A stretch of DNA of 63,867 nucleotides, filler included, from Dugesia japonica (lineage: Eukaryota), in NCBI GenBank assembly GCA_001938525.1. It is 5 parts of 5 records of this genome, joined end to end, with 100 filler letters (N's around TTAATTAATTAA, not from the genome) between each part and the next. Parts side by side here need not be neighbours in the genome. Positions count along the whole stretch, not along the records: positions 1 to 13,305 come from MQRL01640624.1; 4 more parts are not named here. One strand, 5' to 3'. This document shows, one piece after another, positions 4,199-52,949 of this stretch. The position numbers and the translations under genes were made by a program. Below the pieces are notes generated by a model. That model searched no databases, was not told the origin of the DNA, and worked only from the letters and a program-made list of their open reading frames with translations. How positions within the stretch are numbered: position 1 is the first letter of the stretch; each line of letters begins with the position of its first letter.

Positions 4199-5187
4199 AT
4201 GATGGAGGACAAGGATATTGTAACTGGCGACCACGTCAGGACTGTGCATGCGGTGACAAGGCAACATCATTAACAGAAAACAACTTTAGATGCATTACTA
4301 AAAAGCGCAAGAAATAATAAATTTTAAGGTCAGAAAATATGATGGAAAATTTGCAGAAGAAGCATCAAAATGGTTAAAGAGTATTGAGGAGTTGACTATC
4401 ATTAACGATTCCAATTTGTTGAATATCTTTGATTTACTATTGTCAGATGAAGCAGATATTATTGAGAAAGATTTTAAAAAGATTGAGATTACAACGGAGA
4501 AAGTCAAAAGATAGTTCACGGAAACATTTATGATTAAAAAAATCGTTTTCGGAGCTTATTTTAAAATAAGCAATGGCAAAACAAGAGACTGAAGAAAGGT
4601 TCTCAACATTCAAAATCAGGGTAAGAAATCTGATAGATAATTTCATGAATTCAGGACTAAGTAAAGATGAAATATGCAAAGGTGAAATGAAGTTGAAATG
4701 TGCAAAGTTGAGGGAAACATTGACAACACGTCCTAATATCAAGATCACGGAAATGAGATCACTAGCAAAGATTTATGAGGACAAGGAACATTAAGAACGA
4801 AACGCCGAAAAGGAAGATACCTGTATGATACAAAAAAAATGAGTTCTGCAAATGTAGTGAAACCCATACATAAATAGAGTGAAATAGGATAGATAGAAAA
4901 TAGGTGTAAATAATTTATCAATACAAAGAGCATATGATTAGAACACTCAACCAGCGATGATGGAAGATAGAACACGGGATGAGGCCAAAACTGCTAGTAT
5001 CGATGAAATATTTGGCAAGATGTTATTTTAATAGACAGAGGCAGACCTTTTTCAATGTGAAGAGGAAAAGGAAGTGGTAATAACGTATGGATCCAGACAT
5101 TTGACCGCTCATGAAAAAAGGTACTGTATGACAAAGAAAGAACTATTAGTTATACACAAATTTGTCCAATAATTGTAGCAATATATG
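4199..5187 (+). mobile_element. Internally deleted Ty3/gypsy remnant (gag N-terminus joined to an RNase H fragment)
   Basis: Gag-like frames with stops; about 5065-5170 encodes EKEVVITYGSRHLTAHEKRYCMTKKELL (gypsy RNase H); the 5' part is homologous to 34173-34470. Confidence 0.75.
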
Positions 5188-5654
5188 TGTTGGGGTGAAA
5201 CACCTGAATAAACGAAGTAAAGTAAGAAGGGACCCCGGAATGATAAATAAATAAAGATATAATGAAAGAATAATGCAAGACAACGAGATAGTGTAGCAAT
5301 TAATAATAATGCCTAGTTAATTATGAAAGATAATAATAACAAATAATTAAATTGAATCTAGTTGGGAAGAAAATTGGAAAATTATAATAAACAAAATGGA
5401 AAATAATTAAGATCAGTAAACGAAAGGATTATGATCAGCTATTATTAATAAAAGTCTGAATTATATTAAATTCATTTAAAATTAAAAGAAATAAAATTTG
5501 AAAAAATAAAGAAAATATTAATTAATAAGTACAAATAAAGAAAGATCATTTAACAGAAAAATACAAAAAAAACAGGTTTCAACAAGCACAATCCAATTTT
5601 GTTAAAATTAAAAAGATAACGCCGTCAGGGAGTTAGGAAAGGGTCATAAAGATC

Positions 5655-5835
5655 GGACCAATAAGAGATCAGAAAAAATACGAAGAACGAAGGCATAAGA
5701 TGGTTACTTAAAATAACCACCAATAAGAGACAAAGAAAATTTTAAAGCAAGAAACCAATAGAAAAGTAAAGAAAAATTTTAAAATAGTTGGCCAATCACA
5801 AAGGAGTCGTGGTGCAATCAAAATGGCATAAAAAC
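5655..5835 (+). promoter_or_regulatory. CCAAT-box array with TATA-like element (putative U3 promoter)
   Basis: CCAAT at 5658, 5720, 5755 and 5792, followed by CATAAAAA near 5827. Confidence 0.55.
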
Positions 5836-6662
5836 CCCCAGAAAATTAGGACAAAAAGTCAGATGTTAATTCGAAATTTTAGCGAGTCATTAGCCGAAAT
5901 TTTAAATGAAGAAAACAGTGTTAGTAAAGGATTTCATTACTATTATCTGAAAATCCATTGCAGAAAATAACAAGAAATGTAAGGATGTGTTTAATTTTAT
6001 CTAAATGTAATCTTATGTACAATTATTTAACTTGATCTGACAATAAACAGAAAGTTTTGACTTAAAGTATATTTTTATGTGAAGCCGTTATTCATTCTAC
6101 ATAAATTAGTCACTTCTACTAAAAATTTATCAGATCGCGAGAGCAATGAGCAAATAATTTTTGGCCATTTGAACCAACATGCTAACTCAGTGACAGCATC
6201 TATCTCACCACTCGACTGTTTATCTGCCGTTATCATCATACCGCATCATGACGAAATTGTCAGTCACCCAATTCAAGTTTCCGATTACTACCACCACGAT
6301 GAAATTGCTTTCATTTCTAATATCATTAACCACAGTGGGGGATTTATTGCCAAACAAGTTTGCTTCTATTCCTGGTAACTAATGATTCTCACAAACGATT
6401 GAATGAGACAACTCCGTAAGTTCATCAGGGCACACCAACATTAGTATTATTATTATTATCTTTACTAACATTATATTATTATCATGATTATTATTATTGT
6501 TATTATTATTATTATTATCTTAACTAAGCTTATTACTACTGTCATTATTTTTATTACCTTTATTAATATTAATATTATTATCATTGATATTATTATTGTT
6601 ATATTGTTATTAGTTCCCAAAATTATTAATAATATTCCCAGTTATTACCCTCAAAGTTGATC

Positions 6663-8569
6663 ATGACCTTTGTCACTCTTCCTGTCAAAAAGAATATATG
6701 GCATTTGAAAAAATTATGCTGACTGGGACTTAACAGACAATGTAAGTGATATTTTCTCTTTATCTCTTGTAGTCAATTTTCATTCTTATTAAGAAGGGGA
6801 ACACTCCAAATTATCACGACTCTCCTCCCCACAATAAAGTTGCATTAAATACGCTGTTCTCTAATCCTTGTTACGGCATTGAATTTTTAACTTACCTTTC
6901 TTTTAGTGAATCCAACCACAAATACAACTACGAACTGGAAGCTGTATAGATTAGACGACGGGCTCAAGAAGGATAAACATGTAACCCACCCACAAAATCT
7001 GTGCATTGGAAGTTTAGTATACAATTCAAATATGTCCCCTGCAGAGCAAAGAATTAAGCCGACAGAGGATAAATATAAGCGGGATTTTGGCAAATTCTGG
7101 CACCTAGGATATGCTTATTTTCCCGATCTACCTTCATCACCACAGTCGTCGTATACAGCGGAGTATGAATTAAACCCAGGGCACGAGAGATATACCATAT
7201 GACATTACCTTAAATTTTAATTTGTGTTAATTTTTCGAATAAACTAGTGATTAGATAAACTAACTTCCCTTGATTTGATTACCGATTTACAGCCACTTTT
7301 CGTAGAATCTAATTTGTTATTAATATCTTCTTTTGTTCGTTGTAGTGTCGCAATATGGGTGGCGGATTTATGAGGACGTAAATGACCGTACGGTTTTCCG
7401 TCGTGTAAATAATCCCTACGAGAGAGATGCAAGTATCCTCGTCAACCGCTCCAATATGCCACCTGTCAATCAAGAGCACCTACGCCGTGCAGACAAAGCT
7501 GAGCGTTAGCTCTACTTATTGACCTGCTCAGGGAACACAAGTAGTTAGAGTTCCCTCAAATCCAGCTTTCCCCAACTCGTCATCCGATGATAATTTTGAG
7601 AACTATTAGATTTGTCGATATAATTAATATAGCATATTCTTTGAATCTGGTACTTTTCACTTATAGAAAGCCATAGATCATTTGTGCCATTTGATCATTC
7701 ATAACTATTTTTCTGTTTCAGTGAATTCTTCACGTTCCAGATTGGTCGCACAAATAAAAAGTTACGAATAAAAGGTGATGAGAAAGAGATGTCCTGGTGT
7801 CTTTACAGCTGAGCCAAGCTTAATTTTGAAGCAGACATAGGGGCCGAGAAGATGAAAAATTGCGTATATAAAAAACGGTGTAATGAATATCGTGTGAGGC
7901 TTATTTCTCTCACACGCAGAAGCGTGCCTGGAAAGAACAGCTCGTATCTTTCGGCGACATAATCTGGTCTTTACATGACCGTGAAAATCAACTGGTCAAT
8001 GACATTGTAAACCTAAGAAAGAGAATTCCATTAGACCCATTACTGATTGATAAGGCAACTCAGATGCGAAATTGAATTTGCAGTTTTGTATTATTATCTA
8101 TAAATAAAGTTTTTCTCTTTAAAATTGAGTAAATAATACAATTTTCTACTTAATGGTTTGAAATCTTGAATGTGTGAATAATACGTAATTTATCTTCTTA
8201 CTTTCAGTGACTTGAATCCGGTTACCTAGAAGCCTTCGGCGGTGTCACAAATTATTACAACAGTTTCTTTTAGAACGACACTACACTAAAAGATGTGAAC
8301 GGACTCTACTGTGCTACATCTCCCAAAAGAATTGTCTGATCAAGAAAGTGGAACTCGTCTCCAAAAAAAAACTTGAGATCGCCAAACGAACAGCGAATCA
8401 GTTATTTAATAAGTTCAACTTTTTGACCCAGTGCATCCCTGATTTAGCAGCTCGTCATAGTATAGAAGCTTTAGAATGTTAGAATAGTGATGACGATGAG
8501 GCCGCATTCGACTTCACGAATGACGTGCCGATCTAATGGGATTGAACCGAGACTTTTGATGTTTTATAA
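6663..8569 (+). pseudogene. LTR-borne accessory gene: leader exon 6663-6741 plus alternative terminal exons A1 6907-7202, A2 7346-~7510, B 7722-8075, C 8208-8569
   Basis: Donor T|GTAAGT at 6741/6742 (phase 1); four pyrimidine-rich acceptors, all AG|TG and phase 1; AATAAA at 7238, 8103 and 8569; scattered premature stops. Confidence 0.7.
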
Positions 8570-9167
8570 ATAAATCTTGCTACGTGTCGTTCTGATTAGT
8601 TATCTTGCTTACGGAATTTAAGGGGAATTTTGAACCTGAATCAAAGGCATGCAAGCATGCACTCAAACTACGGGTTATGAGTAGTTAGCAATTAGTTTCT
8701 GTATAGATATTACATTAATAAGATTCATTTTAGAATTTTTAATATTATTAGTGTGAGTTTGTTTTGAAAATCGAGTTGAAATTTTTGTGTAATTGGTGAT
8801 CTTATTTTTGAAATCTTTTATTTAAAAGAAAAATTTAAATTATTGATGAAAAATTTAAATAACAAATATTTCGTTTAATAATATATTAAAATTTTTGACT
8901 AAAATTGGCTACTTGAGATGACCATTGAATAATAAAGTAAAATTTTTAATACATGAAATTTTTAACGTGAACGAAAATTTGGTCTTAAATTTTATATAAA
9001 TAAATGAAATATTTTTTAAATAAATTAAATTAAATTAATTTTAAATAAATAAAATTTTCGATTTAAGATTTTAAAAAATGATCACCAATGAAAACACGGG
9101 ATTTTAATTTGTTTGAATAAACAAATAGTGTTAAGTATAGTTTTTATTTCAAATAAATTTTACGGAG

Positions 9168-12100
9168 TTGAATTTTGATGTTGATAATGCGATGAGTTCT
9201 CCAAACTCATCTAACATGGTGGCAGCAGTAAACACTGATGTGATCACAAAAGGATTGTGGCCAAAAATAAACTTCGGGGCAAAGAACATCTTTGTTAACG
9301 AAGATCAGGAACGTTGGATAACATGTTTGCTTAATGAAGATTTAATGGAAGCATATGTGAAGACATTGAAAAAAGTTGATAGATATCGAGAGAGATTGCA
9401 ATTAGCTTTTGAGAGCAAGAGAGACATAATAAAAGATTTACAGAATCTTGTAAGCTATCGAGGTGGTAATGAAAAACTCGATGTGTTTTTTTAAAAAAGT
9501 GAAAGATTTTGTCGATAAATCTACAGCAAATGGCAAACTGACGAAAGAAAAACTCTTATCAAAAATGCTTATAATTTGTGCAAATAGTTAAAAAGCAGAA
9601 GAAGAGATTATCATGCAAAAAATTGGAGAAAGTAGAAGACTTAAAAGAAACGCTATCATTAGTTGAAAAAATAGAAAGAAGAGAGCCTATTGACGTACTA
9701 AAGAGTTGCGCAAGTGTAACACGTTGAGAACGTACTGGAGAGAGGAGACAAAATATGGAGAGAATTACTAGAAGAACGGAACCACAGTGTTGGACATGCC
9801 AGAGTTATTTGCATACAAAAAAAGATTGTCTAAAAAATTCTTAAGTGGAATGTTTGACTTGCTACAAGAAAGGACATTTAAGTAGAAATTGTCCAGACAA
9901 GATAACCACCAAAATGTTTCGAGTGTGATAAGATTGGTCATATCAGAAGCATTGTATGTGGTAGATGTAAAAGACCGGATCACAGAGCAGAAGAATGTTA
10001 TTCGAACATTAATAAACCTAGACTAGAAGAGAGAAAATACAATTTTAGAAGCGGACAACAAACAAAATTTTGGAGTCAGACAAAACCAATTCATGCCATT
10101 CGAGAAGAATTTGATGACGAAAATGAAGAGTGATTTTCTGAGAACATAATAGAAAATGATGATCCAAGAAGAGAATACCCAAAAGGCATGGCTCCGTTAG
10201 TAGAGGAGTTGGTTGGAGCCATCCATTAAACGGGATACCGCTTGAATATCCTCAAGAGACCGAGAAATGGAAGTTGGCGAAAAAGTTTACAGATTCCTAA
10301 AAAGAGAAAGTTTCAATGATGCGGCAGTTAACAAGGCAGAAATGATAGGAATAATTGAAGAGAAACATAATGCAGAAATTTCGTATGATAAAATGCAAGG
10401 GAGATCCAGCATTTCAGTGATGATCAAGGGTGAACAGATTGATTGTTTGTTGGATACAGGAGCAAGAATAAATGTGATGAGCATGAAAGGATTTAAAAGA
10501 CTCGGAGAAACANNNNNNNNNNNNNNNNNNNNNNNNNNNNNNNNNNNNNNNNNNNNNNNNNNNNNNNNNNNNNNNNNNNNNNNAAGTTGTAGTTTTAGAG
10601 GTGTGCAAGGAAGTAACATTTATAATAGTAGAGAAATTAATACCAGATCTAATTGGTTGAGTGGAATTTCAGAATATTTTTGGGTATCATCTTCAAAAAT
10701 AGTGAAGGGTAGACTTAAATAATCATCATCAATAATCATCGAGAAAGATTTGTTTGCAACATCGAGACAAAATTTGGAAGGCAGATACAGACCGGTGAAC
10801 GATTGATACATGCAATGGAGATTCTAGAAATTAACAAAGATCATCGATTGACTGTGATTATTCAGTATAATAAAGATGTATTCATGGCAGATAAATGAGA
10901 CATTGATTGCACACATTTAACGAAGCATCAAATAATCACTAAAGGAGGTCCAATCAACATAAAACCGTATCGTCAATCAATGAATCTAGAAGAGAAGATT
11001 GAAGAGGCCATAAAGAATCTATATGATAACGGTTTCATCTGGATTTGTACTTTTTAATGGAATACGCCATTAATCTGCGTTTGTAAAAATAAAAAAAGGA
11101 TTTACGATTATACTTAGACTTTAGACAGCTCAATGCAATAACTGAAAGACAAGCGTTTCCTATACCAAATGTGGACGAAATGCTGGATGCTTTGGAAGGT
11201 ATGCAGTATTTTAGCTCAATAGACTTTGGAAATGCATACTATCAAGTGGAGCTTAGTGAAGATTTACCAAACAAGGGTAATTTTATTTCAATAGAATGCT
11301 TTTTGGAATTGCAGCAGCATCAGGTACGTTCCAGGAAATGATGAATAAAGTAATCGGAAAAATAAAAGGATCGATGGTTTATCCAATCGATATTCTCACA
11401 TTTACCGAAACAAAGTAGCAACACTATGAAATAGTCAATAAAGTATTGACAGAAATTAAGAATGCTGATCTAAGAGTTAATCAGAAGAAATGTCAATTGA
11501 TGCAAAAGAAGATCAAATTTTTGGGACACGTTATTAATAAAGAAGGTGTCAAAACAGATCCAACTAAAATAGCAGCAATTTAGAACTTTGGTAAACCAAA
11601 ATGCATTAAGAAGATGAGAAGCGTTTTGGGAATTTGCAATTACTATTGAAAATTTATTAAACATTTTCCGAAAAAATCTAGATTGCTGGAACAACTGTGT
11701 AGGGGGCCAAGTAACAAGAAAATTGAATGGGCGAATGAATTAGAAGAAGTTTTTAATAGAATGAAAGAAGCAATAATGATGTTTCCAATATTATGTTTTC
11801 CAGCTATAAATAGAGGATTTATTTTGGACACGGAGGCGAGTTTCGATACGATTGGGGCAGTACTATCTCAAAGAGACAGCAATGGGCAAGAAAGAGCAAT
11901 TGCATATGTGTCACACGCAATGACGAGTCATGATAAAGGATATTGTACTACACGGAAAGAATTACTCGCAATATACTACTTTTGTATTCATTTCAAACTT
12001 TACTAATATGAGAAGAGATTTATCCTCAGAACAGACCATAAAGCTATCACTTTTATGCTAAATACCAAGGAACCGATAACATCACAGTTTCAAACTTGGA

Positions 12101-13405: not shown

Positions 13406-15397
13406 ATTTTCCAATCTTAATTGTTTCATCAAATGTTCACGTATTTTATAGTATAATTTAATAAAAGTAATACAGAAGAGGGAATCAATAATCATGAAAA
13501 CATTATTATTATTATCAACAGAAATCCTATTTTACGATTATTTATTGTTTACTAAAATTTTAGTTTATGTTATTATTAGTCTATATGAAATATTAAAGAT
13601 GGCGCCAAGAATGAAATTAAATCCCNNNNNNNNNNNNNNNNNNNNNNNNNNNNNNNNNNNNNNNNNNNNNNNNNNACGTATTTTATAGTATAATTTAATA
13701 AAAGTAATACAGAAGAAGGAATCAATAATCATGAAAACATTATTATTATTATCAACAGAAATCCTATTTTAAGATTATTTATTGTTTCCTAAAATTTTAG
13801 TTTATGTTATTATTAGTCTATGAAATATTAAAGATGGCGCCAAGAATGAAATTAAATCCAAGTGAATAAAGAGCTAGTTAACCCAATTTCTATGAAAAAC
13901 CCTTGCAATATTTATGAAACATGGTTAGTAATTATATTAACACAAAAAACGATTGGAAATAACTATTCTTTACAGATAATCTTGAAATTCTGGACTTTTG
14001 AAAATTCCACCATTACCTTCTGAATGACCTAATATTTGTTAACTGTAAAATATATTTTCCCCGTAATGTGTCATTAATTTTTCATTAGCAACTTTTATAT
14101 AATTAATTGTATTTGAATTTTAACTAGTTAAAACATTTTTAGAATGTTTAAAAGATTAATTAACACATTCCAACACCGAATTACAACAGCTGATTCACCG
14201 GTAGTACACACCCCTATTTAATTATTAAGCTGTATAATGTCGATGTTACCATATAGCGACATAATGGATGCACTAAACAGCAATAGTGTCATATAGAGCG
14301 GAAATATAAAAATAATTCACTGGGTTAACAAAATTTTAATTCTTACAAGTGAACAGTCTAAGAAATGTATTTCTAAGTTTTTATTCAGTAATCCTTTAAC
14401 TTTGATGGAATTAAATAAATATTTTTTCTGAATTTAAATTATTTTTATACTGGTAATTCATTATTATAATCAATTCAGTGAAATAACACAATACTGCACA
14501 ATTACATTTTCTAATTTCTTAAAAAAATTAATTAAAAATTAACTTTTGAAAGAACCTAAGCCTTCATTTAAAAAAAATCAAAACTAAGTTAAACAATGTG
14601 ATAACATAATATTAAAAAAAATAAAATCTTCAATGATGTGAAAATTCATGTGATGTGATATTCATTCAAAAAAAGAAATATGGTGAAATAAAATTAATAA
14701 CAAAATTGATAACATAAAATCCCATCCAGATATTTTCATTATTGAAATTGACATCCGGATATATGACATAGTTACTTGTAATAAGTACAAATATCAATTA
14801 ATGTTTGAAGAAGTTTTCTAAACAGAATTTACCAATTATCCAAATGACATATTAAAAGATCTCTTATCGAAATTATGATAAAAGTTTTAAATTTTTTTAG
14901 AGAAAAATAATAGTAAATTACTGATGAAGAATTCCAGAAATAAATTTATGAATTTATAAAAAGCTATTGAAAATATGAACTTATTTTTGGCATGAGAAAA
15001 AATAATGCTGATTTTATAAAGTTGCTGCAACAAAAATATTCAAAATATAAAATATTTACATCAAACTTTTATATAAGAATTTGAAAAATAGAAGCATAAT
15101 GTTCATAACTTAGTGTTAATAATTCTTAGACAGATAATATTGGTTAAGCCCCAATTTAGTAATCACTATGGCAAGTATATTTCTGTTTACTTTTCAAGTG
15201 TAATGATTTAAAACAAATAGTAGTTGGAATAAGTAACTTACAATATAGGTACCACTCGTATAACTCAAATATTAGATTCTAAAAATATTGTGTCACGAAT
15301 TCGCGTTAAGAGAAGTTCAGATATCTTAAAAAATAGTTGATTACATTATGTTGATAACATTTAAAATTAAAGAAACTATTTCAACAACCATAACTGT

Positions 15398-15647
15398 ATT
15401 CATTTAAAATAAAAGCTACGATCAAAATTTTTGTTTTTGTTATTGATATTTGATAACAATTCGATATTTCGACTTTGACTTTTCTTCAATTCCTGAAAAA
15501 GACAAAGTCGAAATATCGAATTGTTATCAAATATCAATAAAAAAACAAAAACTTTGATCGCAGCTTTTATTTTAAATGAATTCTGTAAAACGATCAATTG
15601 TTATGTCCAATAATTATTCTGGTAATAATTGCAATTGTAAAATTATA
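15398..15647. mobile_element. Fold-back (head-to-head inverted) copy of the hammerhead-containing PLE terminal repeat
   Basis: ~85-bp arms inverted around ~15490; right arm CAATTC-CTGAAAA-A-GAC-AAA-GTC-GAAA-TATC-GAATTG; same family as 56692-56940. Confidence 0.8.
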
Positions 15648-19031: not shown

Positions 19032-20129
19032 ACATAATTTTTCGAGTTCTCATAATAACTGTGTTGTTTAAGTTTAAATGAATAAAGCAAAAAATTAAAA
19101 AAACTAATATTCTAAAAATTTTAATTTATATACATGAATGATTTATTTAAAAAAATATACATACAAATGTGATTATTTGAAAAGTTTAAATGAATTATCT
19201 TCTCATTTATAGACGACAAAAAATAATTTGCAGGTTATGCTTTAAAAATATTATAATTCATAAATGACGTTTTACAAAACAAGGCAATATAAAACATAAA
19301 TTACTATAGCAATTATTCAAATTGGATACTGGCAAAAGAAAAGAAAATTTAAAAATAAATTTCTTAATACACTTTCGATTTAATCCCAATCTAAAGTTCA
19401 TTATAAGATATTTCAAATTAAATTAAGGAGACCTTAAGGGCACATATTAATTTATTAATTTACTATATTAATTAAAAAATTTTAAATAAAATAATTTTAT
19501 TTATTTTTCCCTTAAATAAGTAAAGAAATTAATTTTTAGTTCTTCATTCAAAATTTGAGAACAGATTCAAGTAAAAATAGAAAAAAATTGTTTAGATTTA
19601 TGATAAAATATATTACATTTAAGTTTTGAAATTTAATTAATGATAGCAATTCATAAATTTATTTATTATTAATGTAAAATAATGCATCGAACAGGTATGG
19701 TGAATATTTGGTACGGTGAACTATTTCACAATAAATAGAAAAAACCACTTTTTCTCGAAAATATATAATATTAGGTAATTCTAGTTTTTGCATTTTATTA
19801 GATCTTATGTTCTTAGAATGATACCATAAAAATTAAAGACAATCAATGAAATGTCACATTTGAAAAGGGAAAAATGATGTTTTTAAATGTTGAATACTTA
19901 TTTATTTATTCGAAACATGAGCCCTGTTTATCTAGGACCTTTGCCCAACGTTCACCTAAGGCATATATTGAATCTTCAAAGAATTTGTCATCATTGATAT
20001 GGAAAAAATTGCGAATGCTTCAATTTCCTCTTCTTTATTTAAAAATGGTTTATTACATATAAAAATATTGAAATTTTTAAATAAGTGATAATGAGTAGGA
20101 GAGATATCAGAAGAATATGGAGGATTTTA

Positions 20130-21313
20130 CAATTACAAATATTGTGAGATTAATTGTTGGAATTAACCATTGATCGCATTTTAAAGTATTAATAAATTAA
20201 AAAGCTTAGATCAAAAGGTTGTTTTTTTGTTGATAGTAATTTCAATTTTTGGCAGTTGTCTTCTTCAGGAATTAACTTATGGATTTAAATAAAAATTCAT
20301 GTACTAAAATGGAAAAATTTTGAAATTGATTTTATTTTATTGAATTGGTTACTTTATTTTAGTTATTTTATATTACATTTATTTTAGGTTAATCTTCTTT
20401 AATTAGCAGTTCTTCATGTTTCTTCCAAAGAATTGAGGAAATGTAGCCTGTTCCTAGCGTTTTCTATGTTAATTGATGTTGTCATAGTGAAATTATATGT
20501 TTNNNNNNNNNNNNNNNNNNNNNNNNNNNNNNNNNNNNNNNNNNNNNNNNNNNNNNNNNNNNNNNNNNNNNNNNNNNNNNNNNNNNNNNNNNNNNNNNNN
20601 NNNNNNNNNNNNNNNNNNNNNNNNNNNNNNNNNNNNNNNNNNNNNNNNNNNNNNNNNNNNNNNNNNNNNNNNNNNNNNNNTCCAAATGTTTTGAATATCA
20701 TTCTTGTATTGTGCTTGAGTTTAGATTCTTTTATTATATTCTGCACGATTTGACTACATTTTTCATTAATCAAGAGTAATTTAATTATTGTGCTTGTTTT
20801 TTGTTTGATTTTATTAAATTTTATATTTGAAGATAAATATTTAGATATAATTTTTAATAGATTTCCGTTATTTAGGAATTTATTTTTTATTAACTTGAGA
20901 GGAATCAATTTCATTTCTTCATTTGAAGATAGTCTATCAGCTCGAATTATCTCACTCTTAATTATAAAAAATTTCAGTCTGATGTTAGTATTACTACTGT
21001 AAGGTAATATGTATTCACTGTGAAATTGTTTCATATATAATTTGGTAGTTATTATTTCATTAGGTTTCTTTTGAATTAAAATATCCAGGAAAAGAATCTG
21101 AAAGTAAATTGACTTCTCAAAAGTGAATTTAAAGTTATCATTATGATTATTGCTTATTTCCAAACTGTTAGCTAAAAGAGAATTAGCAACAAAGAAAATA
21201 TCATCTATGTATCTAAACCATAGATGAATTTTCTTGTTTGGTTTAAGAATTATGTGATTTTTAAAAAATTTCATAAAAATTATCGCCAAAACGAGAGACC
21301 ATTTGCGAAACAA
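20130..21313 (-). mobile_element. Penelope-like element fragment (RT and thumb) with downstream degenerate hammerhead repeat
   Basis: WFRYIDDIF, FTFEKS, ILFLDILI and TKLYMK motifs; CTGAAGA-A-GAC repeat at ~20240-20273 plus the family flank TTGATCTAAGCTTTT on the same strand. Confidence 0.85.
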
Positions 21314-21429
21314 AATTAATCATTACTATTCCTATCATAACTTTGAATTCATTCGATAAACTCGTAACTATTCTTTAAATTCACCAGAATAAAACTTAAT
21401 AGTGATCTTAATATATCTAACATGGTTTT

Positions 21430-22500: not shown

Positions 22501-24505
22501 TACAATTCATCTTGTGAACAATTTATTTGGTTTATATCATCTAATTTTTCGTTAATACACATCACTGATTTTCTTGAAGACTTCGATGTTGTCTCAAGAA
22601 GTAGGCATCATCGATAAAAGAAAATCATGTTCAACACAAATCAAGCGTTTGTTCTTCAGTGGACAGTGCATTCTCACAGGGTATTCTTCACCACAACAGA
22701 AGCATTGACTAGATCGAAGAAACTCATTTTTAGGTTCTTAAAATCGTATACATTTATTGTATATTCGTGTTTCATAGAATACTTAGGCTATCTATTCTTC
22801 TTGAATCAGGATGGTATGAGTGTGGTTTCTCGTTCATTTTGTCTTCTAAAATCATCAGTGGTATGGTGATTATTATTTAGTCGTGTGATAATTGATGAGG
22901 GCTCAACAGTGGGTCCCTGGTTCATTCGATCATATACAGAATTCCTTTATGGTTTTTGTNNNNNNNNNNNNNNNNNNNNNNNNNNNNNNNNNNNNNNNNN
23001 NNNNNNNNNNNNNNNNNNNNNNNNNNNNNNNNNNNNNNNNNNNNNNNNTTAGCCAAACTGCAAATATCTTCTATTGACATATTTGGTTTCTTCCGGCAAA
23101 ACGTCGAATTTTAAAATAATTCAGTTCTTGACCTTTCTTTGGCAAGACTTCAACTAACAGTTTTTTCTGATTGCGAGTTATGACATTAATATTTTCGACG
23201 TAGTCACTAGTAAAATCATTCTTAATATTTACTTAACACATTTAGTAATCAAGCTAACCAAAATCTATTTNNNAAAAAAAACAAAACAGAATTACGTAAA
23301 ACTAGGTGTATCTTAAATTTATTTCTTTTTGATTAGATACTATAAATTATGATTTTCTGTATTTATATTTACTTGAACTAAAGTAAATCCCAGAAGACTA
23401 CCGTCAAAAATTTGTATTTCTAACAAAAGAAACATCTTTTTATTCTATGATTTTTAATTTATTGAAACTTGAAACAACCAAGCTAAATAGTTACAAGTAT
23501 TAGTATAAGATTTAAATTTAATNNNNNNNNNNNNNNNNNNNNNNNNNNNNNNNNNNNNNNNNNNNNNNNNNNNNNNNNNNNNNNNNNNNNNNNNNNNNNN
23601 NNNNNNNNNNNNNNNNNNNNNNNNNNNNNNNNNNNNNNNNNNNNNNNNNNNNNNNNNNNNNNNNNNNNNNNNNNATTTCAAATTAACAATATTCGCGTGA
23701 AAAAGTTATACGTTCCAATCAAATAATATTCTGACATAAAAAATTGAAAATAACATTAATCATAATTTTCCAGTTGTAACTACAATTTGAAACGTTTTAA
23801 AATAAGTTTATTAAAACAAATTTTGTTAAATAAAAAATGCCAATACTTTCAATAAATAATTATCATAATTTAAACATAAGTAAAGTATGAAAATACAAAA
23901 AATATCAAGTTAATAAATGACAATAAATATTCATTTATTTATTTCAATAGTTCATCTTAACCGATTGAACTTGTCGAAGTCATAAATATTGAGAAAATTG
24001 TTTGAATTTCTACAAATCTACTGTATAAAAATACAATAATTTTATTAATTCAATATATTTTATTACTAATTCTGAAGTAAATATAATAACCACCTTTCTA
24101 GTTCATAATTAACATTTTTGAAAAATTATGATACAAATGGGATTAGTAAAATAATAACAATATTTATTTCAAGTATAAATAGAAAAATATTCTTAATTCT
24201 TGATAAAAATTCCTTACCAAATATTTCTTGGAAAGTAATGAATTGATTTCAAATATTAAAGATTTGGTTGTGAATACTTTAAAAGTCAGATTACTTTTTG
24301 ATCTTTATATGGAATAAAATTTTATCAATAAAATTAGATATTTTAATGAATATTGATTAGAAAAATTAAACTAAAACTAGGAAAATATTTAATAACAAAT
24401 CTAATTTATTATTGATTGATTTTAAATTTAAAACTAATTTTAGAAAAATTGATAATTTATTTAGAATAGTTTAAAAAATTAAAAAAGTAAGTAGTTATTA
24501 TCAAC

Positions 24506-32420: not shown

Positions 32421-34172
32421 TATATCAAAGATTTGAATGAAAATGTAGAACTAGGCGTGGCGGATTTGTAAAAATAAATCTTAACTCTTGTCATTTGTGT
32501 TATTATCTTAATTCAAATAGTCTTGTTGGAAATCAAGTCTCGTAACCAAACGATACAAAACCAGTTATTCATAGTAAAATAAAGGAAAAACTTACTAAGT
32601 AGCTTATAAAAAAAATAAAATCGCAAAATAAATCTTCTTTCAATTTAAGAAAAATCATAATTACATAATTTTGAATTATTAGGATTAATGTTAATCAACT
32701 AGATTTACCAGAATTTTCAAATCCGATAGAGTATATTTACTCATTTCAAAACCAAGTTCGAAAATATTTTATAATACGTTTATTCTCCATAACTTTGTAG
32801 TTTTTTTATGTAAAAGCATATTTCTGGACAACGAATAACACATCTACAATATTTCAAATAATTCCTGATTAATATGAAGGTTAAAATATTTATTTAATGC
32901 AATTACACAAAAATTACTTGATTCTAAACCACTCATTTAAATTTAACATTAAATCATAAAACATTAACTTTAAAATATAACAATGGACAAATTTATTTAA
33001 ATCACTTATTATAATTAATATTTAAAACAAACATAATTTCTTTTTATTAATTATTTATCAGAAAATATTTATTTTTCAAAAATTATAGATTTAAATTAGT
33101 CATTAGCAGATTGTTTCATTATACCATCTACTGTATCAATTCATCTTAATTCATTGCATCATTTATTACTGTCGATATAATAAATATAGTTTTCGTGTTG
33201 TTGACAATATAACCATTTTTCATAATTCTTTTGATTTTCTTTAAGCTCTCGTTCAGACAATCTTGAGGAATCAATTATGTTGATTCTATGTCTTACTTGC
33301 AGATGTAATATTTTTAGAACTCATCACATTATATATGCGTAAATCTAAGATATGTACTTCAGTTAACAAGTTGTTAATTTATTAACCTTGCATGTCTATC
33401 TTATTTATGTACTATAGACACTTGATTCATGTCCCGCTGTGAAATAAGACTCCACTATTGCACCGTTAAAATAACTACAAATTTCGATTAAAATATAAGC
33501 CCTTTTAGAGTAAATATCCGGGTGTGTAAATAAATGTTTTAAAAGGCAATAAATTCTGCCTTGAGTAAGGGGTTAAATTGTGTGGAGACGATATTTTTTT
33601 CAAAGATTTCAGAAAACTGAAACGTGAGGTGAATAATACTAGCAAAGAATAAATAATTCGATTCTATGACGCATTTGGATCTAGAAGAAAAATGCATCGA
33701 GCCTAGCAAATTATGGTCGGGTATTTGAACTAGTGGGTGTGCTAAATTATTAGTCTTCGACGCCTGAATAAATCTTTAAGGACAGTATGTATAACTACGA
33801 ATCTTTGTAAAATTTAATAGGAGCATAACTCGGGCGCGACCCCAAAAATCAGTACAGTAACATATTATTTTTAATCACTGTTTTATTTGATATTTATTCA
33901 CATTTTGTAAACGGTTCATATTTAATTAAAAACATGTTCATTTAATTAATATATTTTTTATTTATTATATTTTATATATAAATACCTACAAGCCAAGTAA
34001 TATTAAATAGGAGTCAGAATAATCTTTGTTAGAACTTTAGCGCAATAGGAATCTAACAATATGTCAATATATAATAGTTATGGAAATTCTAAATAACATT
34101 GTTTGAATAATAAGAATTAACGTTATAATTTTTATTTAATAAATATTCTAATCACTTAGTTATTATTGAAAT

Positions 34173-34470
34173 ATGATAAAGAGCAAGCATACTGTAACTG
34201 ACAGCCAAGCCAGAACTGTAAATGCGGTGACAAGGTAAAAGCATCAACAGAAAGAAATTTTAAGTGCGTTATTAAAAAGCTCAAGATTTAATAAATCTTA
34301 ACGTCAGAAAATATGATGGAAAAGGTGCAGAAGAAACTTCGTAATGATTTAAGGATATCGAGAAGTGGACTTTTGTTAACGATTTCATTTTGTTTGATAT
34401 CTTTGATTTACTATTGCTAGATAAAGCAGGAACTCTTTGGAAAGATTTTCAAAAGATTCAGAAAGAAAGA
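34173..34470 (+). mobile_element. Gypsy gag 5' fragment homologous to 4199-4490
   Basis: Shared nucleotide blocks such as TGCGGTGACAAGG, GTCAGAAAATATGATGGAAAA and ATATCTTTGATTTACTATTG. Confidence 0.75.
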
Positions 34471-34549
34471 AAACAATTACAAAGAAATATTATGAATATT
34501 CATGGCCATGTTAAAAAAATATAGAAGCCATAAACTGAAAACCTACCAC

Positions 34550-34646
34550 AGGGACGGTAGGGTAAATTCTTGAGAGGGTTCCCCTGAGGGCTGTTTTTTT
34601 TCCAGCCGCTTTTTTCGTGTCACTAAACTCAAGTAGGACCCTAACA
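34550..34646 (+). mobile_element. 3'-terminal (U5-like) fragment of the long-LTR family
   Basis: GGGACGGTAGGGTAAATTCTTGAGAGGGTTCCCCTGAGGGCTGTTTTT...GGACCCTAACA aligns with the reverse complement of 59743-59840 (...GGACTCCAACA). Confidence 0.75.
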
Positions 34647-35069
34647 TGTCTAACGATTTGATAAACTCTAACATTTAAGTCTGATAAGATTAAATGTCAA
34701 TAATTTTGATTCTTGAAGTCAGAGTCTATCTATTAATTAAAAGGTTGATACGGAGTAAATAAATATTAGGTTTTGTTGAAACAAAATTTGAATCAAAGTT
34801 TTTTAAGGTCCATCAAGACTCCATGAGAATAATGAATTCAAATTTTCGGATATCTAGAGATACCACATGATTGAAATCAATCAAAGTTTTGTGAGATCGG
34901 TTGAGATTCTTTGAAAATGAATCAAAGTTTTGTTAACTTTACGGAGACTCCAAGACTATGTTAAAATATTGAACAATTTACGAAAGTTGAATAAAACAAT
35001 TTGGATCTTTGCATTATCAAAAATTCATTAATAATATTATGATTTTCAATGATGATAATAATTTACGTT

Positions 35070-39250: not shown

Positions 39251-39598
39251 CAGTTTAATTATATAAATTTGTTGTCAATAAATACTTTTTAGTGGTGAAC
39301 TAGTAAAATTTAAAGTACTCCCAACTGTTTTCTTGATTTATTAAATTGTTTTCATTATTAAATAAATTAAAATGTTTAAATGTGATTTAAGAGGTTTTGT
39401 AAGTAGATTTTTGTAAATTAATTTAAAATATTTTTATGAATATATTTGGTAAAAAATAAAATGCACAGATTTTATGAAATAAAAAATATTAACTGTATAA
39501 AATATTTTTTTCTAAATACTGGAGTATTAACCATAGAATTATTTAATCAATATTAATTAATTAAATTCAATAAAAATTTAAATTTGAATTCTATTCTG

Positions 39599-39940
39599 AT
39601 GGCGAGATATTTGGGATGTCAATGTTACGATCCATCAATGCCCCCAGCAGCTTGTGTAGAAACCGACAATAGATGCAAAGAGGATATGAGAGTACATCGA
39701 GAAATGCAATCACAACTAGAAGCTTCTAGACAATCAAGACCTTGGGCATGTAAGTGTTATCCACCATCATTATACTATTCAGATGGATTAACTTTAAAGC
39801 GAGATAGAAATCTGGAAAAACAAATACTTCCAATTTATCCTATAATAGCCGATAAATTTAGACCAAATTATTCATACGAAAAGAATTGTCAAAACAAAAA
39901 GCCATCCTTTACGTCACCAAATTATAATCCGTCCAAATGA
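39599..39940 (+). CDS. Orphan 113-aa Cys/Pro/Tyr-rich protein, apparently single exon
   Basis: Uninterrupted ORF with coding-like composition in AT-rich flanks, ATG at 39599, AATAAA at 39971, internal repeat GCQCYDPS / ACKCYPPS. Confidence 0.65.
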   Translation: MARYLGCQCYDPSMPPAACVETDNRCKEDMRVHREMQSQLEASRQSRPWACKCYPPSLYYSDGLTLKRDRNLEKQILPIYPIIADKFRPNYSYEKNCQNKKPSFTSPNYNPSK

Positions 39941-44405: not shown

Positions 44406-44505
44406 NNNNNNNNNNNNNNNNNNNNNNNNNNNNNNNNNNNNNNNNNNNNTTAATTAATTAANNNNNNNNNNNNNNNNNNNNNNNNNNNNNNNNNNNNNNN
44501 NNNNN
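44406..44505. other. Artificial scaffold spacer
   Basis: 44N-TTAATTAATTAA-44N. Confidence 0.95.
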
Positions 44506-44785
44506 AGAATATCCATTTTTATTTAACAAAGAAATCAAAGTTTGAATATTTACACACGACTTCGAAAAAGAAGAAGAGAAAGTCCCAGATCTATATATTA
44601 AACCTTTAATCATATTAAATTTATATCGAGATTCACAGAAACTACCAGGTGCTGTATATAAACCANTATCAGTTGGCTTTCGATATATTTCTGTCTCATA
44701 ATGGTCAGATTTCCGTTCTATTAATATATCAAGAAAAGGAAGTTTACCATAACGTTCCATTTCAGTTGTGAACTTTATATCAAAA
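44506..44785 (-). mobile_element. Penelope-like element RT thumb fragment
   Basis: IKFTTEME..GKLPFLDILI...TEIYRKPTD.GLY...LNKNGYS, characteristic of PLE RT. Confidence 0.88.
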
Positions 44786-45211
44786 AGAAAGAGATGAATG
44801 TAAAAAATTAAGAGAAAAATTAAACCTGGAACAAAAACCAAAATTTATTGAACACCCAGGTTTAAAACTTTCATAGATAAAATATGAAGATGATGATGAT
44901 TTAATTATTTCAAATATGGATTGTATAAATATTGCAAATGAAATTAAAAAAAATACTGACAATTTATGTGAAAGATTAACTCGTGTGAAAGTACCAGAAA
45001 ATTACGAAGATGACATAAAAAGAATATACGCTGCAAAAAGTGATTTACCAAATTATACAGTTAAAACTTCTAATTTCAAATAAAGCGCCTATTTCTAAAT
45101 CTCTAAAAAATTACGCCACGCGTGGCGCCTTTTTCAAATTAAAATCTCTAAATATAAATAACCATCATTAAAGAGGGTGAAAGCTGTCTAACTAAATTAT
45201 TTATACTTAAA

Positions 45212-48200
45212 ATGACTAGTGAAAACTAGTTGATTTGTCCAAATAGTTTTTGTAAAAAGATTTTTAAAAATAAATCACGTCTGATATCTCATGTTAGATC
45301 TCAGTGCTGTGTTCTACATAGAGCAATATTTACTTGCACACGATGTCTAAGCACTTTTCGATCTATGAAGGGGTTGACGGAACATATGAACTCAGAATCA
45401 TACAAAAGCTCATTACAATTCAAAGGCGCATAAAGAAATGTTAAACAAATTATTATTTGATCAACTTCCTGGAGAAGAAGCAATTGATTATGATCCATAA
45501 ATTTGTGACATCTTTAAAATGTACAAGGAGTATGAAATTCAATATTTTAAAGACAGTAAAGTTGAATTAACCAGAAATGTTGAGCAATTGGAAAGACCTA
45601 TAAAAATGATTAATGAATTTCAAAAAGAAATAACTGAAATTATTACCAAGTATTTTAATTATGGTAAAAAGATTAATGTTCGAATGAGTGTAAATTGTAA
45701 TTATAATAAAGAAGTAAACGGTGAAAACATTGAAAGAATTTTTAATTCATATTCAAAGAATAGACAATTTACTATTTCAAGTGAAATTAATGATGGTGTC
45801 AATGATATTGTAAATGAATTACAAAGATATATCAAAGATGAAGATCGAAACGAATCTGGATGGAATTTAAATTATATTGTTGATTATAAAATCGAACTTT
45901 CTAAATATAAATCTTTAGCTTGAGCAACTTATCGGAAGTTACCATTCTCAAAACCAGGTGTAATTAATATCCAAAATAAAGATGAAAAATATTTTCTCTA
46001 TTCAATTTTAGCTCATAAATATATATTTGAACATCCAACTAGAATTGAAAATTATATTACTTATTTAAATGAATTAAAAACCAATGGAATTAAATTTCCT
46101 GTAAATATTGATGATGTTAAAAAATTTGAAAAGTTAAATGATTGGAAAATAAATGTATTTTTTGTAACTGCCTCTAAACAACTTGAACCATTATATATTT
46201 CTCATTATGAAACTAAATCTAAATCAGAGGAAAATAAATGTAATTTATTAGTTTATAAAAATCATTTTATTTTATGTAGAGATGTACAAGTATTTTATGC
46301 AACAAACAAACATAAAAATTATTTTATGTATAGGATGTATGAATTGTTATTAAAGTAAAGATTTATTAACAAAACATCAAAATGAATGTATTAATCATGA
46401 AATATCAAATATTACCTTTTTCAAAACATAATAATTATTATTTTCAAAATTATTATTACAAAAATAAAATACTTTTTGCAGTTTATGGTGATTTTGAAAG
46501 TTGGACCAATATTAACACTAAAAAACAAAAACCTTTATCTCTTGGAATTTATGTAGTGAGTAAATATTTACATATAATGAAAAATTAATATAAAACAATT
46601 TATGGAGAAAATATACATTAACAGTTCTTTGAATTTTTAAATGAACTAAATAATAAATTAAAGATATAAAAGAAAACAAATTAATAACAAGATTTTCAGG
46701 CGGAGTTCCTTATGAAGTTGAACAAACTCACCTAAAATGTAGATATTGTGATAAAGAAATGGGACCCGCTGGGATAACTGAAATCCCAGTCATTGATCAT
46801 GATCATTTCAATATAAACTTTAGAGGATATGCTCATTCAAAATGCAATTTACAAGATAAATCAATAAAAAATTTATTTATTCCATTTTACTTTCACAATG
46901 CATCTGGATATAACAATGATTTATTTTTCAAAGTATTATTAACAAAATATCCAAGTAAAGTTAAAAAAATAATTCCACATACAGATGAAGTTTATATTTC
47001 ATTTTAATATGAAAATATAAGAGGTTTGGATTCAGCAAGTATGTGCCCATTTACATCAATTGAAAAAATGAGTGAAATGTTAAATCAATCAGGAAAATAT
47101 AATCATTTAAGAGCATTTAATTTAAAAGCAAAGAAAATATCATTTCCTTGTGAATATGTAAAAGGAAATAGTATTAATCAAGTAATTGAATTATTAAAAA
47201 GTAATTAAATTCCAACAAAAGAAGATTTTAATAATATACTAAAACAAAAAATAATATCAGAAAATGATTATAATGAATTTAAACAAGATTTTAATCAATT
47301 TGGTAATTTATTTGATTATATGATGTATTATATGAAATTAGATGTAATTTTTTTAGCAGATTTCTTTGAAAACTTTAGAGAAACATGTTTAAATAATTAT
47401 CAAAAGACCCAGGTTATTGTTATTCAGCCCCTGGATTAACCTGGAATTATGGAATGCAATTTACTAAATTAAATTAAAATATGCACAAAAAGAAACTTAT
47501 GACAGATTTATTAAAATTGAAAGAGGTGTAAGAAGTGAATATTCAAGTGTATGTGGAGAAAGACAAGCTTTTGGAAATAGTTAAAGAAATAATAAAAAAA
47601 TAAATAATGCACAATATGATAATTTATTTAATTTTATTAAAAAACAAACAATATCTTCCAGATGATTATTTTGAAGAAACATTTTTAAAATATTTAGATG
47701 AGAATTTTTATATGCATCTTGTATGACTAAGCCTTTACCAACTGGAGAAATTTATGAATGCCAGGACTTAGAATATATTAAATCAATAGATAAAATAAAT
47801 TATATTTATGAAGTGGACTTAGAATATCCTCCAGATATACATGAAAAGACAAAATACTTTTCTTTAGCACCAGATCTAATTAATATAACTCAATAAATAT
47901 TGGCTTTTTATCAATATAGTTTTGATAAAAAGTTGACTAAGAAAAATGTTAAATTAACGTTGAATCAATTTGATAAACAAAATTATATTGTTCTAGGAAG
48001 TACTTTAGATTTGTATAAATCTTTAAGAATGAAAATTAAAAAAATACATTCTAAATATAAAATGCCAACAACACAATGGTTAAAAGATTATATACAATTT
48101 AATATTGATCAAAGAAATAAAGCAAAAAGAAGTAACAATGTTTTTGGAGATTACTTTTTCAAATTATTAAATAAACTTTAGAAAAACTTTAGAAAATATA

Positions 48201-48950
48201 AGAAATAGATGTAATGTAGAAATTGTAGAGAATGATAGAGATTATCAAAAGATATTATCAAAGATAAATTTTTAATCAAGTAAAATATTTAGTTACAAGG
48301 AAACTGGAGAGGCAGAATTTGCAGCTATACAACTTTATAAAACTAATTTAAAATATAATAAATTTCCATATATATATATAGGATTTACTATTTCAGAATA
48401 TGCGAAAGTAGTAATTTATGATTTTATTTATAATCAATTAGATAATGCAATTCCTAACAAATATAAAATTTATTATAGTGACACAGATTCTATTTTTGTA
48501 GAAATAATCTGTCAAGATAATTTAAAACAAGTAGAAAGATTATTAGATAATAATTTGTTTCAAATGAAGGTTGAGAAACCTAATAATGAAATAGTTAAAT
48601 GTGATTTTATAAAAGCAAAAGGCTATATTATTCACGACCGAAATCCCAACGGATCCCAAAATATAGAAACTAAACACAAAGGAGTTTCAAAAATTAGTAA
48701 AATAGGAATCGAACATTATGATAAAGTTTTAAGTAATTATTGTAGTTTAAAATCTAATAAACATGAAATACAATTAGTTGAGCAAAAGAAAATAGCCTTA
48801 ACTGGATATGACGACAAAAGATTAATTGAAGATAACGGTGTAAGGACATGACCACACGGAAATAAATTTAAATTTGACGTTTGTAATCAGTGGCATTTAA
48901 GGTTGGATCAATTAAAACAAAAATTAAATTGTAGTTTAATATTAAAATAA
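45212..48950 (+). pseudogene. Protein-primed family B DNA polymerase with N-terminal Zn fingers and endonuclease-VII-like insertion
   Basis: ESGWNL, YGDFES (ExoI), VIDHDH..RGYAHSKCNL, FHNASGY (ExoII), LADFFENFR, YEVDLEYP, FFKLLN, YSDTDS, KHKGV and YDDKR motifs; many stops and frameshifts. Confidence 0.93.
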
Positions 48951-48975
48951 TTGTGCGCGTGCACAGGTTTCAAAT

Positions 48976-49656
48976 TTATTTCTTTAATTTATTAATTACT
49001 TTTTGTTGATTTTCAATTTGATTTTCAAGTTTTTTTAAAACATCATTATTATATTCAAATTCTTTTTTATTTTCATGTGAAATTAAATCTTTAACTTTTT
49101 TAACCATATTCTCGATTATTGAAATTTCTTCATCAGTTAAAATATCATCAGATAAAGCTTTCTGGTGAAATAAAAATAATTTATTTTTAACAGTTTCCAA
49201 TCCATGAATTAAATTTTTATGCTTTTTCATTTTAGACTTTATTAATGATGTATTTAAAGTTCTAATTACTAGAATACAGGAAACTGATGTAGTTAAAAGT
49301 ATGGAAACTAATTCACCAAAAACTCCACCGATACCAAAAGTTTCTAAAGAAATTAAAACTGTTCCAGTTATTCCAATAATTGTTCCTATAAATATTGCTG
49401 TAAATCTAATCGAAGTATTTAACTTTGACCATCTTTTATTAATATTTTTGTTATGGTTAATTTTATCATCAATGAAATATAAATCAGATTCAAAATCTAC
49501 TATTCTTAAATTTGATAATTTAGTCTTTAGATCTTGAACAGTGTATTTTTTATCTTTGTAAATATATTTATTTAAATTTTCATTTATATTTTGATATAGA
49601 TTTTTACCTTCGCCTTCATTTTCCTTTAATTCTTCTCTCAATAATTGCTCAGACAT
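48976..49656 (-). CDS. Maverick membrane protein, 226 aa (hydrophobic hairpin flanked by coiled coils); ORF intact
   Basis: Gly-rich hydrophobic segment FTAIFIGTIIGITGTVLISLETFGIGGVFGELVSILLTT followed by KKH...KALSDDILTDEE. Confidence 0.7.
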   Translation of the reverse strand: MSEQLLREELKENEGEGKNLYQNINENLNKYIYKDKKYTVQDLKTKLSNLRIVDFESDLYFIDDKINHNKNINKRWSKLNTSIRFTAIFIGTIIGITGTVLISLETFGIGGVFGELVSILLTTSVSCILVIRTLNTSLIKSKMKKHKNLIHGLETVKNKLFLFHQKALSDDILTDEEISIIENMVKKVKDLISHENKKEFEYNNDVLKKLENQIENQQKVINKLKK

Positions 49657-49699
49657 TTTATTTTATTAATAATTTAGGATTTAATGGGCCCCGTTGGGA

Positions 49700-50449
49700 T
49701 AATTCAGAATAGGATTTTTTTAGGAATTGAGTAATCACTTAAAATAATAATTTTATAAATATAAATATTTTTAGGTAAAATTAAAGTAACTCTATCTACA
49801 GTATATTTATCAGTTAGTAGAATTTCTTTGTATTCATAAAAAAAGTAAATTCTTGTTTTTTAATAAAGTTGTATTCAAATATTTTTGGAATATTATCAAT
49901 CAAGAAAAATAACTAGATAAATTATTAATTTCTTATGTTAGTTTCACGATCTCTTTTTTCAATTCTATTATTTTCTCATTAATATTTTTCTCATTCTTCG
50001 TTTGTGTTAACTCATTTTTAAAAACGGGACCCGTTGGGATCACTTTTTGTTTGTGTTAGCTCGTTTTTAAAAGAAATAAAAGATTCATTTAATTTATTTA
50101 TTTTAATAAATAAATTACTTTGTGTTTTTATCCATTATTTATTATTTTCATAAAGTTGTTGAATATAAATATTTTGATTTCTCGTTGTTGTTACTTGTTT
50201 TTCTAATTTATTAATTTCCCTATTGATATTCTTCTTAACTTCATTCTTCAAATTATTTAAAAATTTTAAATTAACTGTATCTTATTCATTTTTAGGTTCA
50301 TTAATAATTTTCAAACAAGTAATTGAATCACCACTTTCATTAACAAACCTTTTCTCGTTGTTTACAGATTCTAATTTTAATTTAGCAGATACATGTTTTA
50401 AGACTTCTGTATTATTTTGACTATTTAAAATACCTCCAAATTTATTCAT
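49700..50449 (-). pseudogene. Maverick hypothetical coiled-coil ORF (disrupted)
   Basis: Begins MNKFGGILN; K/E/N-rich frames with stops. Confidence 0.45.
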
Positions 50450-50459
50450 TTATTTAAAG

Positions 50460-51602: not shown

Positions 51603-51619
51603 TTTATTTAGGAAAAGTA

Positions 51620-52935: not shown

Positions 52936-52949
52936 CTAATTTTTTTATT

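Follow-up and report, generated by a model that had tools for sequence, protein, structure and literature searches.

What kind of gene unit is formed by a row of small exons, each with a splice acceptor, a stop codon and a poly(A) signal of its own, and which element carries it? The question is raised by a locus of the flatworm Dugesia japonica, in a window (the whole stretch of DNA that was analysed) of 63,867 nucleotides, filler included. The window is AT-rich, gapped and full of decayed mobile elements. A sequence-only reading had described two diverged copies of a cassette in which one translated leader would be joined to several terminal exons, the whole being placed inside a long terminal repeat (LTR).

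The exon cassette and its two copies

The cassette of small exons A, B and C is real and is found in two decayed copies, copy 1 on the plus strand and copy 2 on the minus strand; the full-length reading of the cassette is that of these two copies only. The sequence-only reading had likewise described both as decayed. The exons are as follows (a slash marks the splice junction).

6907 to 7243, plus: exon A1; AG/TG, 97 open codons, stop at 7200-7202, AATAAA at 7238; A2 is its paralogue
7346 to 7509, plus: exon A2, orthologous to exon A of copy 2; AG/TG, 53 open codons
7722 to 8108, plus: exon B, copy 1; AG/TG, about 115 codons, frame-shifted, AATAAA at 8103
8208 to 8574, plus: exon C, copy 1; AG/TG, about 108 codons including stops, AATAAA at 8569
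61111 to 61445, minus: exon A, copy 2; AG/AA ATG, AATAAA 89 nt upstream
60445 to 60834, minus: exon B, copy 2; AG/TG, broken, AATAAA at 60450
60000 to 60354, minus: exon C, copy 2; AG/TG, aligned part without Met

The exons are homologous and collinear between the two copies. In tblastn searches within the window, copy 1 matches copy 2 with E values of 3e-9 for exon C and 6e-5 for exon B, and A2 matches copy-2 exon A with E 0.004; the peptides quoted earlier for B and C are present and align as had been proposed. The shuffle test comprised eight segment pairs, six of which beat all shuffles (0 of 1000 reaching the score for the N-half and C-half of C, the N-half and C-half of B, A2 with copy-2 A, and A1 with A2). 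One pair from the end of B was mis-framed and is void, and for A1 against copy-2 A, where 385 of 1000 shuffles score as high, the similarity lacks significance. Judged by their sequences, A1 and A2 are a tandem duplicate pair. Exon B is the best conserved part of the family. A possible further exon behind C gave a borderline score, reached by 2 and 8 of 200 shuffles.

The acceptors of both copies are in register with the aligned protein. In copy 1 the four acceptors at 6907, 7346, 7722 and 8208 are all AG/TG, as had been stated, and their common phase 1 can be read in A1, A2 and C; for B it is unreadable, exon B being frame-shifted in both copies between the acceptor and the conserved part. 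The same architecture had been claimed for copy 2. Its ATG at 61768 and its AG acceptors at 61445, 60834 and 60354 are there, and phase 1 is readable in its exons A and C; exon A, however, opens with AG/AA. Exon C of copy 1 has a stop already at codon 2, a long predicted helix and an acidic tail.

The codon positions of the exons have diverged unequally. In the protein-guided alignment 117, 131 and 65 of 205 codons are identical at the first, second and third position, the third being the lowest. The DNA-guided alignments give 62/109, 73/108 and 43/106 for exon C and 38/57, 43/56 and 23/56 for exon B. The drop at third positions indicates that selection was acting on the proteins while the lineages of the two copies were diverging, which bears out the purifying selection suspected earlier. 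A pair of gag-like fragments (see below), used as a control, has 49, 58 and 55 of 70 identical and is without codon structure, so the test picks out only lineages whose divergence took place while they were functional.

The proteins had been called unrecognisable, and the searches agree. No relatives were found in Pfam or PHROGs. The two-copy profile of exon C, run with HMMER against 1.84 billion representative proteins, gave none at E 0.001, and a word-index protein search restricted to near lengths, with exon C and an alignment of B, returned no homologue. In the viral contigs searched with C none of 85 pattern matches was confirmed. Metagenomic matches to B (3 loci of 268) were discarded as chance, being one repeated 19-residue match at 47-52% GC with dissimilar flanks. 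The ESM Atlas was blank for C and A1, a blank there being uninformative, and Rfam gave no match. AlphaFold models C as one long helix (pLDDT 88, pTM 0.49, two-sequence input), which matched none of the viral folds compared; the A1 model is unusable (pLDDT 49). From sequence and the poor A1 model, B reads as helical and basic and A as beta-rich with aromatic residues.

Module layout, candidate leader and proposed start codons

The exons close without a conserved donor, and each has an acceptor, a stop and a poly(A) signal. AATAAA lies 70-112 nt upstream of six of eight acceptors, or five of the seven in the sequence-only reading (background 0.14, p 1.7e-4, an optimistic value, as are those that follow, because the acceptors were picked by eye first and the promoter pattern described below was fitted once both copies had been seen). 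The remaining two acceptors have one-mismatch poly(A) signals at 96 and 100 nt, and the eighth, at 6134, has AATAAA 92 nt upstream. The AATAAA noted earlier behind three copy-1 exons were located at 7238, 8103 and 8569; behind A2 there is a one-mismatch signal only. A blind scan of both strands of the whole window found six sites that combine a pyrimidine tract, AATAAA and AG/TG, and four of these are in the cassettes. The layout fits alternative last exons, so that the proposal of separate terminal exons gains support.

The leader of the sequence-only reading has the following form in the two copies.

6663 to 6747, plus: leader, copy 1; short ORF with a stop 19 nt before the donor GTAAGT (6742)
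61669 to 61768, minus: leader, copy 2; short ORF with two stops, then the donor GTAAGA (61674)

The elements of both leaders were found as described: in copy 1 an ATG at 6663 and 79 nt before GTAAGT at 6742, and in copy 2 an ATG at 61768 and 94 nt before GTAAGA at 61674. The earlier idea was that these 26-31 codons are translated in phase 1 and fused to each last exon, to which they would give a common N-terminus. In its favour, reading from the first ATG ahead of the donor leads to phase 1 in both copies, the near-consensus donors precede the first acceptor by 165 and 229 nt, both short ORFs begin with MT and end basic, and a precedent exists in ZAM/Beagle env, which according to the accessible text of bioRxiv 2023.08.03.551782 is joined by splicing to a short upstream peptide. 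The leaders, however, do not align between the copies as DNA (score 31.5; shuffles up to 40), and in-frame stops take up 1 of 26 codons in copy 1 and 2 of 31 in copy 2, or 3 of 57 leader codons against 6 of 656 exon codons (p 0.016), so that a translated leader common to the proteins finds no support. Also against it, both copies have an AATAAA (6833, 61534) between the leader donor and the first acceptor, like those in front of the other exons. Moreover, fusion leaves unexplained why TG stands at six acceptors and an in-frame ATG at the seventh. We regard a fused leader as unlikely; the copy-1 leader is a candidate non-coding or uORF leader.

TG follows six of the seven acceptors of the sequence-only reading, compared with 13 of 304 background sites, and it does so in three unrelated exon types. 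The sole exception, copy-2 exon A, has its own ATG as the first full codon, in the conserved frame, and exon C lacks Met in both copies. Valine and leucine codons of the exons rarely end in G (GTG 7 of 28, TTG 2 of 61), and a start codon needs TG. The simplest account of the TG at six of seven acceptors, the ATG at the exception and the Met-less exon C is that the junction completes an N/TG start, and the start codons would thus probably be gained only on splicing to a common leader. Against this account, the donors nearest exon A end in T and G and would give TTG and GTG, not ATG, and donors ending in A lie farther upstream (5222 in copy 1; 63500 and 62860 in copy 2) at places that are not matched between the copies.

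The promoter-like block and the probable carrier element

The region upstream of the leader holds the following features.

5781 to 5880, plus: conserved non-coding block, copy 1; CCAAT at 5792, TATA-like word at 5827, initiator-like TCAG at 5859
63751 to 63849, minus: promoter-like block, copy 2; CCAAT at 63838, TATTTAAA at 63802, TCAGT at 63770
6134 to 6378, plus: candidate extra unit Z; AG/AT, 80 codons open in the shared phase, Met-less, AATAAA at 92 nt upstream
6440 to 6612, plus: degenerate (ATT)n run, with a similar one ahead of the copy-2 leader at about 62330-62050

The block is 100 nt long and 71% identical between 5781-5880 and 63849-63751, above the identity of the exons, and is without codon structure (25/33, 24/32 and 22/32 identical per codon position). 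It sits about 800 nt upstream of the leader in copy 1 and about 2 kb in copy 2. Its CCAAT, TATA-like word and TCAG we take to be core-promoter motifs at core-promoter spacing. The fitted CCAAT/TATA/TCAG pattern occurs in the window before the two cassettes only, with 0.04 expected, and the block at 5781-5880 is a candidate internal promoter. The block as an integrase tail was rejected, as it has no codon structure and a weak protein score (6 of 200 shuffles). Unit Z does not align with copy 2, and the split-start model leaves its AG/AT and lack of Met unexplained. In the interval 6134-6660 a frame open for 80 codons, in which an HHDEI motif is repeated, is followed by the (ATT)n-derived run; the copy-2 counterpart of the interval, 63200-61900, is longer and does not align with it. 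An Ile-rich run, which may be coding, precedes the leader. An antisense Asn-rich ORF upstream of the leader was dismissed, since the copies are unalignable there and the sense frame is open.

The surroundings that bear on the carrier are these.

4200 to 5000, plus: decayed gag-like frame, presumed parent element; 71% DNA match to 33911-34520
5029 to 5187, plus: RNase H remnant, Gypsy-type pol; PF17917, E 1.2e-8, above cut-off
8752 to 9216, plus: 5' LTR (TG...CA) of a separate high-copy Gypsy, then primer-binding-site-like TGG at 9217
59736 to 59857, minus: block 3' of copy-2 exon C, recurring at 34534-34653

The cassette had been placed inside an LTR. No terminal repeat pair flanks it, and the adjoining LTR begins at 8752, after exon C; it was inserted separately and does not contain the cassette. 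This Gypsy is inserted behind exon C and truncates the cassette-bearing element. The LTR is followed by a decayed gag-pol that extends to about 13260 and has Pfam matches to protease, RNase H, integrase and zinc knuckle; contigs of DNA type are loose before 8752 (113) and behind 9216 (210), and the summed depth at the LTR jumps to about 85,000 from values in the tens or hundreds. The LTR is related to the 3' LTR of another element, at 41.4 kb; in the alignment 250 positions of 371 are identical, and the score is 151.5, the best shuffle reaching 136.5. That element is a second decayed Gypsy pol at 44457-40970 (minus), whose 3' LTR is AT-rich and whose purine tract lies at about 41437. Paired LTRs, a primer site, a purine tract and a target duplication were not found around either copy within the window, copy 1 being cut by the foreign LTR at 8752 and copy 2 by an assembly gap and the window end. 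The cassette may lie inside an unrecognised 3' LTR of its parent element.

The parent element itself is suggested by its remnants. The RNase H remnant is on the cassette's strand, 600 nt upstream of the promoter-like block. The reverse transcriptase, protease and integrase of the element that bears it are absent or unrecognisable in Pfam and score tests (5200-5780 compared with an integrase tail: 113 of 200 shuffles reach the score). The frame at 4200-5000, which we tentatively call gag from its position and a motif, has no Pfam or PDB match and is unlike the downstream gag. Its relative at 33911-34653 (plus) is an internally deleted fragment in which the gag-like 5' part is joined to the block that follows copy-2 exon C: 34534-34653 stands directly behind the second gag-like fragment and is 69% identical to 59736-59857 (E 1e-8; score 87.5, shuffles up to 46). 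The RNase H upstream and this joined fragment together indicate a position 3' of pol, and the carrier is most likely that region of a Gypsy-type LTR retroelement. Features of an env-like third ORF were not seen: exons A-C have 53-115 codons and are hydrophilic, with no Pfam match above cut-off.

The same exon logic could have been brought by a carrier without LTRs, such as a Polinton/adintovirus-like late region, a non-autonomous element or an amplified host gene family, that landed in retroelement debris. In favour of this, a CCAAT-TATA-initiator promoter is combined with alternative poly(A) units in the late region of adenovirus too, no paired LTRs are seen, insertions are nested in the region, and Polinton-like genes (PF21738) lie about 4.5 kb from copy 2. 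Between these genes and copy 2, however, stand a host acyltransferase-like exon and an assembly gap, the capsid strand at 48.9-55.2 kb has no module of AATAAA and AG/TG, and in this window the cassette is not contiguous with capsid, polymerase B, integrase or terminal inverted repeats. Two independent links lead instead to the same gag-like family, and a non-LTR carrier appears quite unlikely.

Reads from 4 of 24 runs were aligned to copy 1, at 6620-9500 only, and about 6% and 25% of the reads of two raw RNA runs were used. Run X8 behaves like DNA, one contig covering the spacer 7515-7693. In run X2 the depth is about 10 at the locus, 10-12 in the leader bins, 18-29 in exon A and 44-1858 in B and C; summed depth at the cassette is not a copy number. 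As many as 53 contigs cross 7989 in exon B. Contigs span 7697-7840, 7784-8243 and 8101-8588, with 81 differences in 460 nt or a similar divergence, and single contigs, 80-90% alike, run across the B acceptor, the B-C spacer and the C acceptor; inside B they differ in length by single bases. Other genomic copies thus retain acceptors and spacers, and the spread of contigs over B and C identifies the cassette as a dispersed repeat family. RNA run X11 has a few reads from related copies on B and C (mean depth at most about 1; 4 reads at 7989), and run X10 has none on 6620-9500. Neither splice junctions nor a 3' end pile-up were seen in these two raw RNA runs, in which the depth on the exons is at most about 1, and none of the best 15 of the 53 joints is from raw RNA.

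Several other features occur in the window. A decayed Polinton/Maverick-like region occupies 45500-55100, with a double jelly-roll capsid piece (PF21738) at 54472-54900, minus, and plus-strand pieces that we tentatively label polymerase-B-like and endonuclease-VII-like. The acyltransferase-like exon is at 58032-58190 (minus), with a GTAAGT donor (PF01553, E 0.017, below cut-off). A small foldback, MITE-like element with long inverted arms recurs at 15393-15586, 20124-20273, 23381-23474 and 56697-56940. Non-LTR retroelement-like fragments at 20414-21319 and 44458-44844 (minus) presumably resemble the region behind the reverse transcriptase in Penelope-type elements. A 127-codon open frame at 39557-39940 (plus), with Cys/Tyr-rich motifs and no Pfam match, is possibly a host exon, and 609-1778 is an AT-rich satellite-like array with nested periods of 25, 82 and 387 nt.

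Proposed expression of the array and its relation to known systems

Based on these findings, we tentatively favour, with somewhat less than even confidence, a decayed accessory-gene array of a dispersed family, with splice-built starts and alternative last exons, located 3' of a Gypsy-type pol. An internal CCAAT/TATA/initiator promoter, or the 5' LTR of the element, would make a pre-mRNA with a non-coding leader, which would be spliced to one last exon, A1, A2, B or C. A separate poly(A) signal, placed 74-108 nt ahead of the next acceptor, would end each last exon, and the last leader base would complete the start codon with the exon-opening TG. Each mRNA would then give one unrelated small protein of about 55-115 aa, beta-rich for A and helical for B and C.

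The tight spacing of 74-108 nt between poly(A) signal and acceptor, and the lack of donors between acceptors, would also suit an element-borne operon, in which poly(A) cleavage is followed by spliced-leader trans-splicing at the next acceptor. Nematode operons have a spacing of about 100 nt. Trans-splicing and candidate operons with gaps of at most 300 nt are described for flatworms in the accessible text of PMC12582326. The flatworm leaders reported in the same text end in ATG, however, which sets the skip-0 frame, and this frame closes at once in copy-1 A1, B and C and within 12 codons in A2, copy-2 B and copy-2 C. Neither an in-frame ATG supplied by such a leader nor an own ATG for each gene was found, exon C having no Met of its own, and an operon is accordingly improbable. 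Serial joining of the exons into one mRNA and one protein, which the GTRAG motifs at nearly matching places inside B (7894, 60664) might suggest, is most improbable of all, as these motifs lie mid-frame and one base out of register with protein similarity continuing across them, and all the exons contain a stop codon and a poly(A) signal, with no conserved donor ahead of the stop.

The splice-built array that we favour has partial parallels. Where LTR retrotransposons have an accessory gene, there is usually only one, and such genes are sought as ATG-started ORFs. The adenovirus major late unit has one leader, alternative acceptors and alternative poly(A) sites, and the genes of adenovirus and of foamy virus generally carry whole start codons. 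Both belong to other virus groups, and no sequence similarity to either was found. Foamy virus resembles the cassette in having an internal promoter for accessory genes (PMC7828637, accessible part). In env of gypsy and the springer subclade the splice junction completes the start as AT/G (PMC2585583; bioRxiv 2023.08.03.551782; available sections of both). The env of Drosophila gypsy and the errantiviruses is likewise described there as a spliced gene 3' of pol with a start completed at the junction. It is, however, one gene for a 54 kDa fusion glycoprotein ending in the LTR, whereas the cassette has 3-5 small unrelated exons, an N/TG split, own poly(A) signals and no env features.

Cer1 of C. 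elegans, a Gypsy/Ty3 element, carries, behind pol and ahead of the 3' LTR, a lineage-restricted ORF, CERV, that is expressed from a spliced mRNA and required for export of the genomic RNA (PMC10309623, accessible text). As presented there, CERV differs from the cassette in being one 517-aa protein from five serial exons, with the gag frame in common and no alternative last exons. The MDG1 group has small accessory ORFs, sORF1 and sORF2, that are under purifying selection and are separated by an internal poly(A) site; in the available part of bioRxiv 2025.03.14.642691 they lie upstream of gag, are unspliced and have their own ATGs, and sORF2 is transmembrane, unlike A-C. Planarian Burro (PMC6431247), bdelloid ORF3s (PMC5408684) and plant aORFs (PMC7264820) represent Gypsy elements whose additional coding capacity often lies 3' of pol. 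Burro packs its domains into a giant polyprotein, the bdelloid and plant elements have one or two extra ORFs, and the accessible parts of these papers describe no alternative-last-exon array. Gypsy and Maverick elements abound in Dugesia (bioRxiv 2025.12.11.693146, accessible part), and in planarians elements of this type become de-repressed on knock-down of the piRNA pathway (PMC8532177); the corresponding part of PMC11410931 holds nothing on promoters. A literature search outside subscription papers, Repbase entries and supplements found no account of an array like this in an LTR retrotransposon; one may have been given there.

A bolder reading, on the unlikely side in our estimate, is an animal Gypsy with a virus-like late unit, composed of an internal promoter, a non-coding leader and 3-5 expandable last-exon modules, each with a poly(A) signal of its own and a splice-made start, encoding three new protein families and amplified in the genome. 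Since the full-length genomic RNA must pass 4-5 poly(A) signals, an export or read-through factor encoded by the element is predicted. The basic helical B and C proteins could, as a guess drawn from this need, let that RNA pass the poly(A) and splice sites, like Rev/CERV-type factors. Start codons split by introns would make the array invisible to searches for ATG-started ORFs. If the array is as proposed, repeats would hold hidden coding capacity, genes would be added in modular fashion, as in the A1/A2 duplication, and the element would have converged on the expression logic of complex retroviruses and adenovirus.
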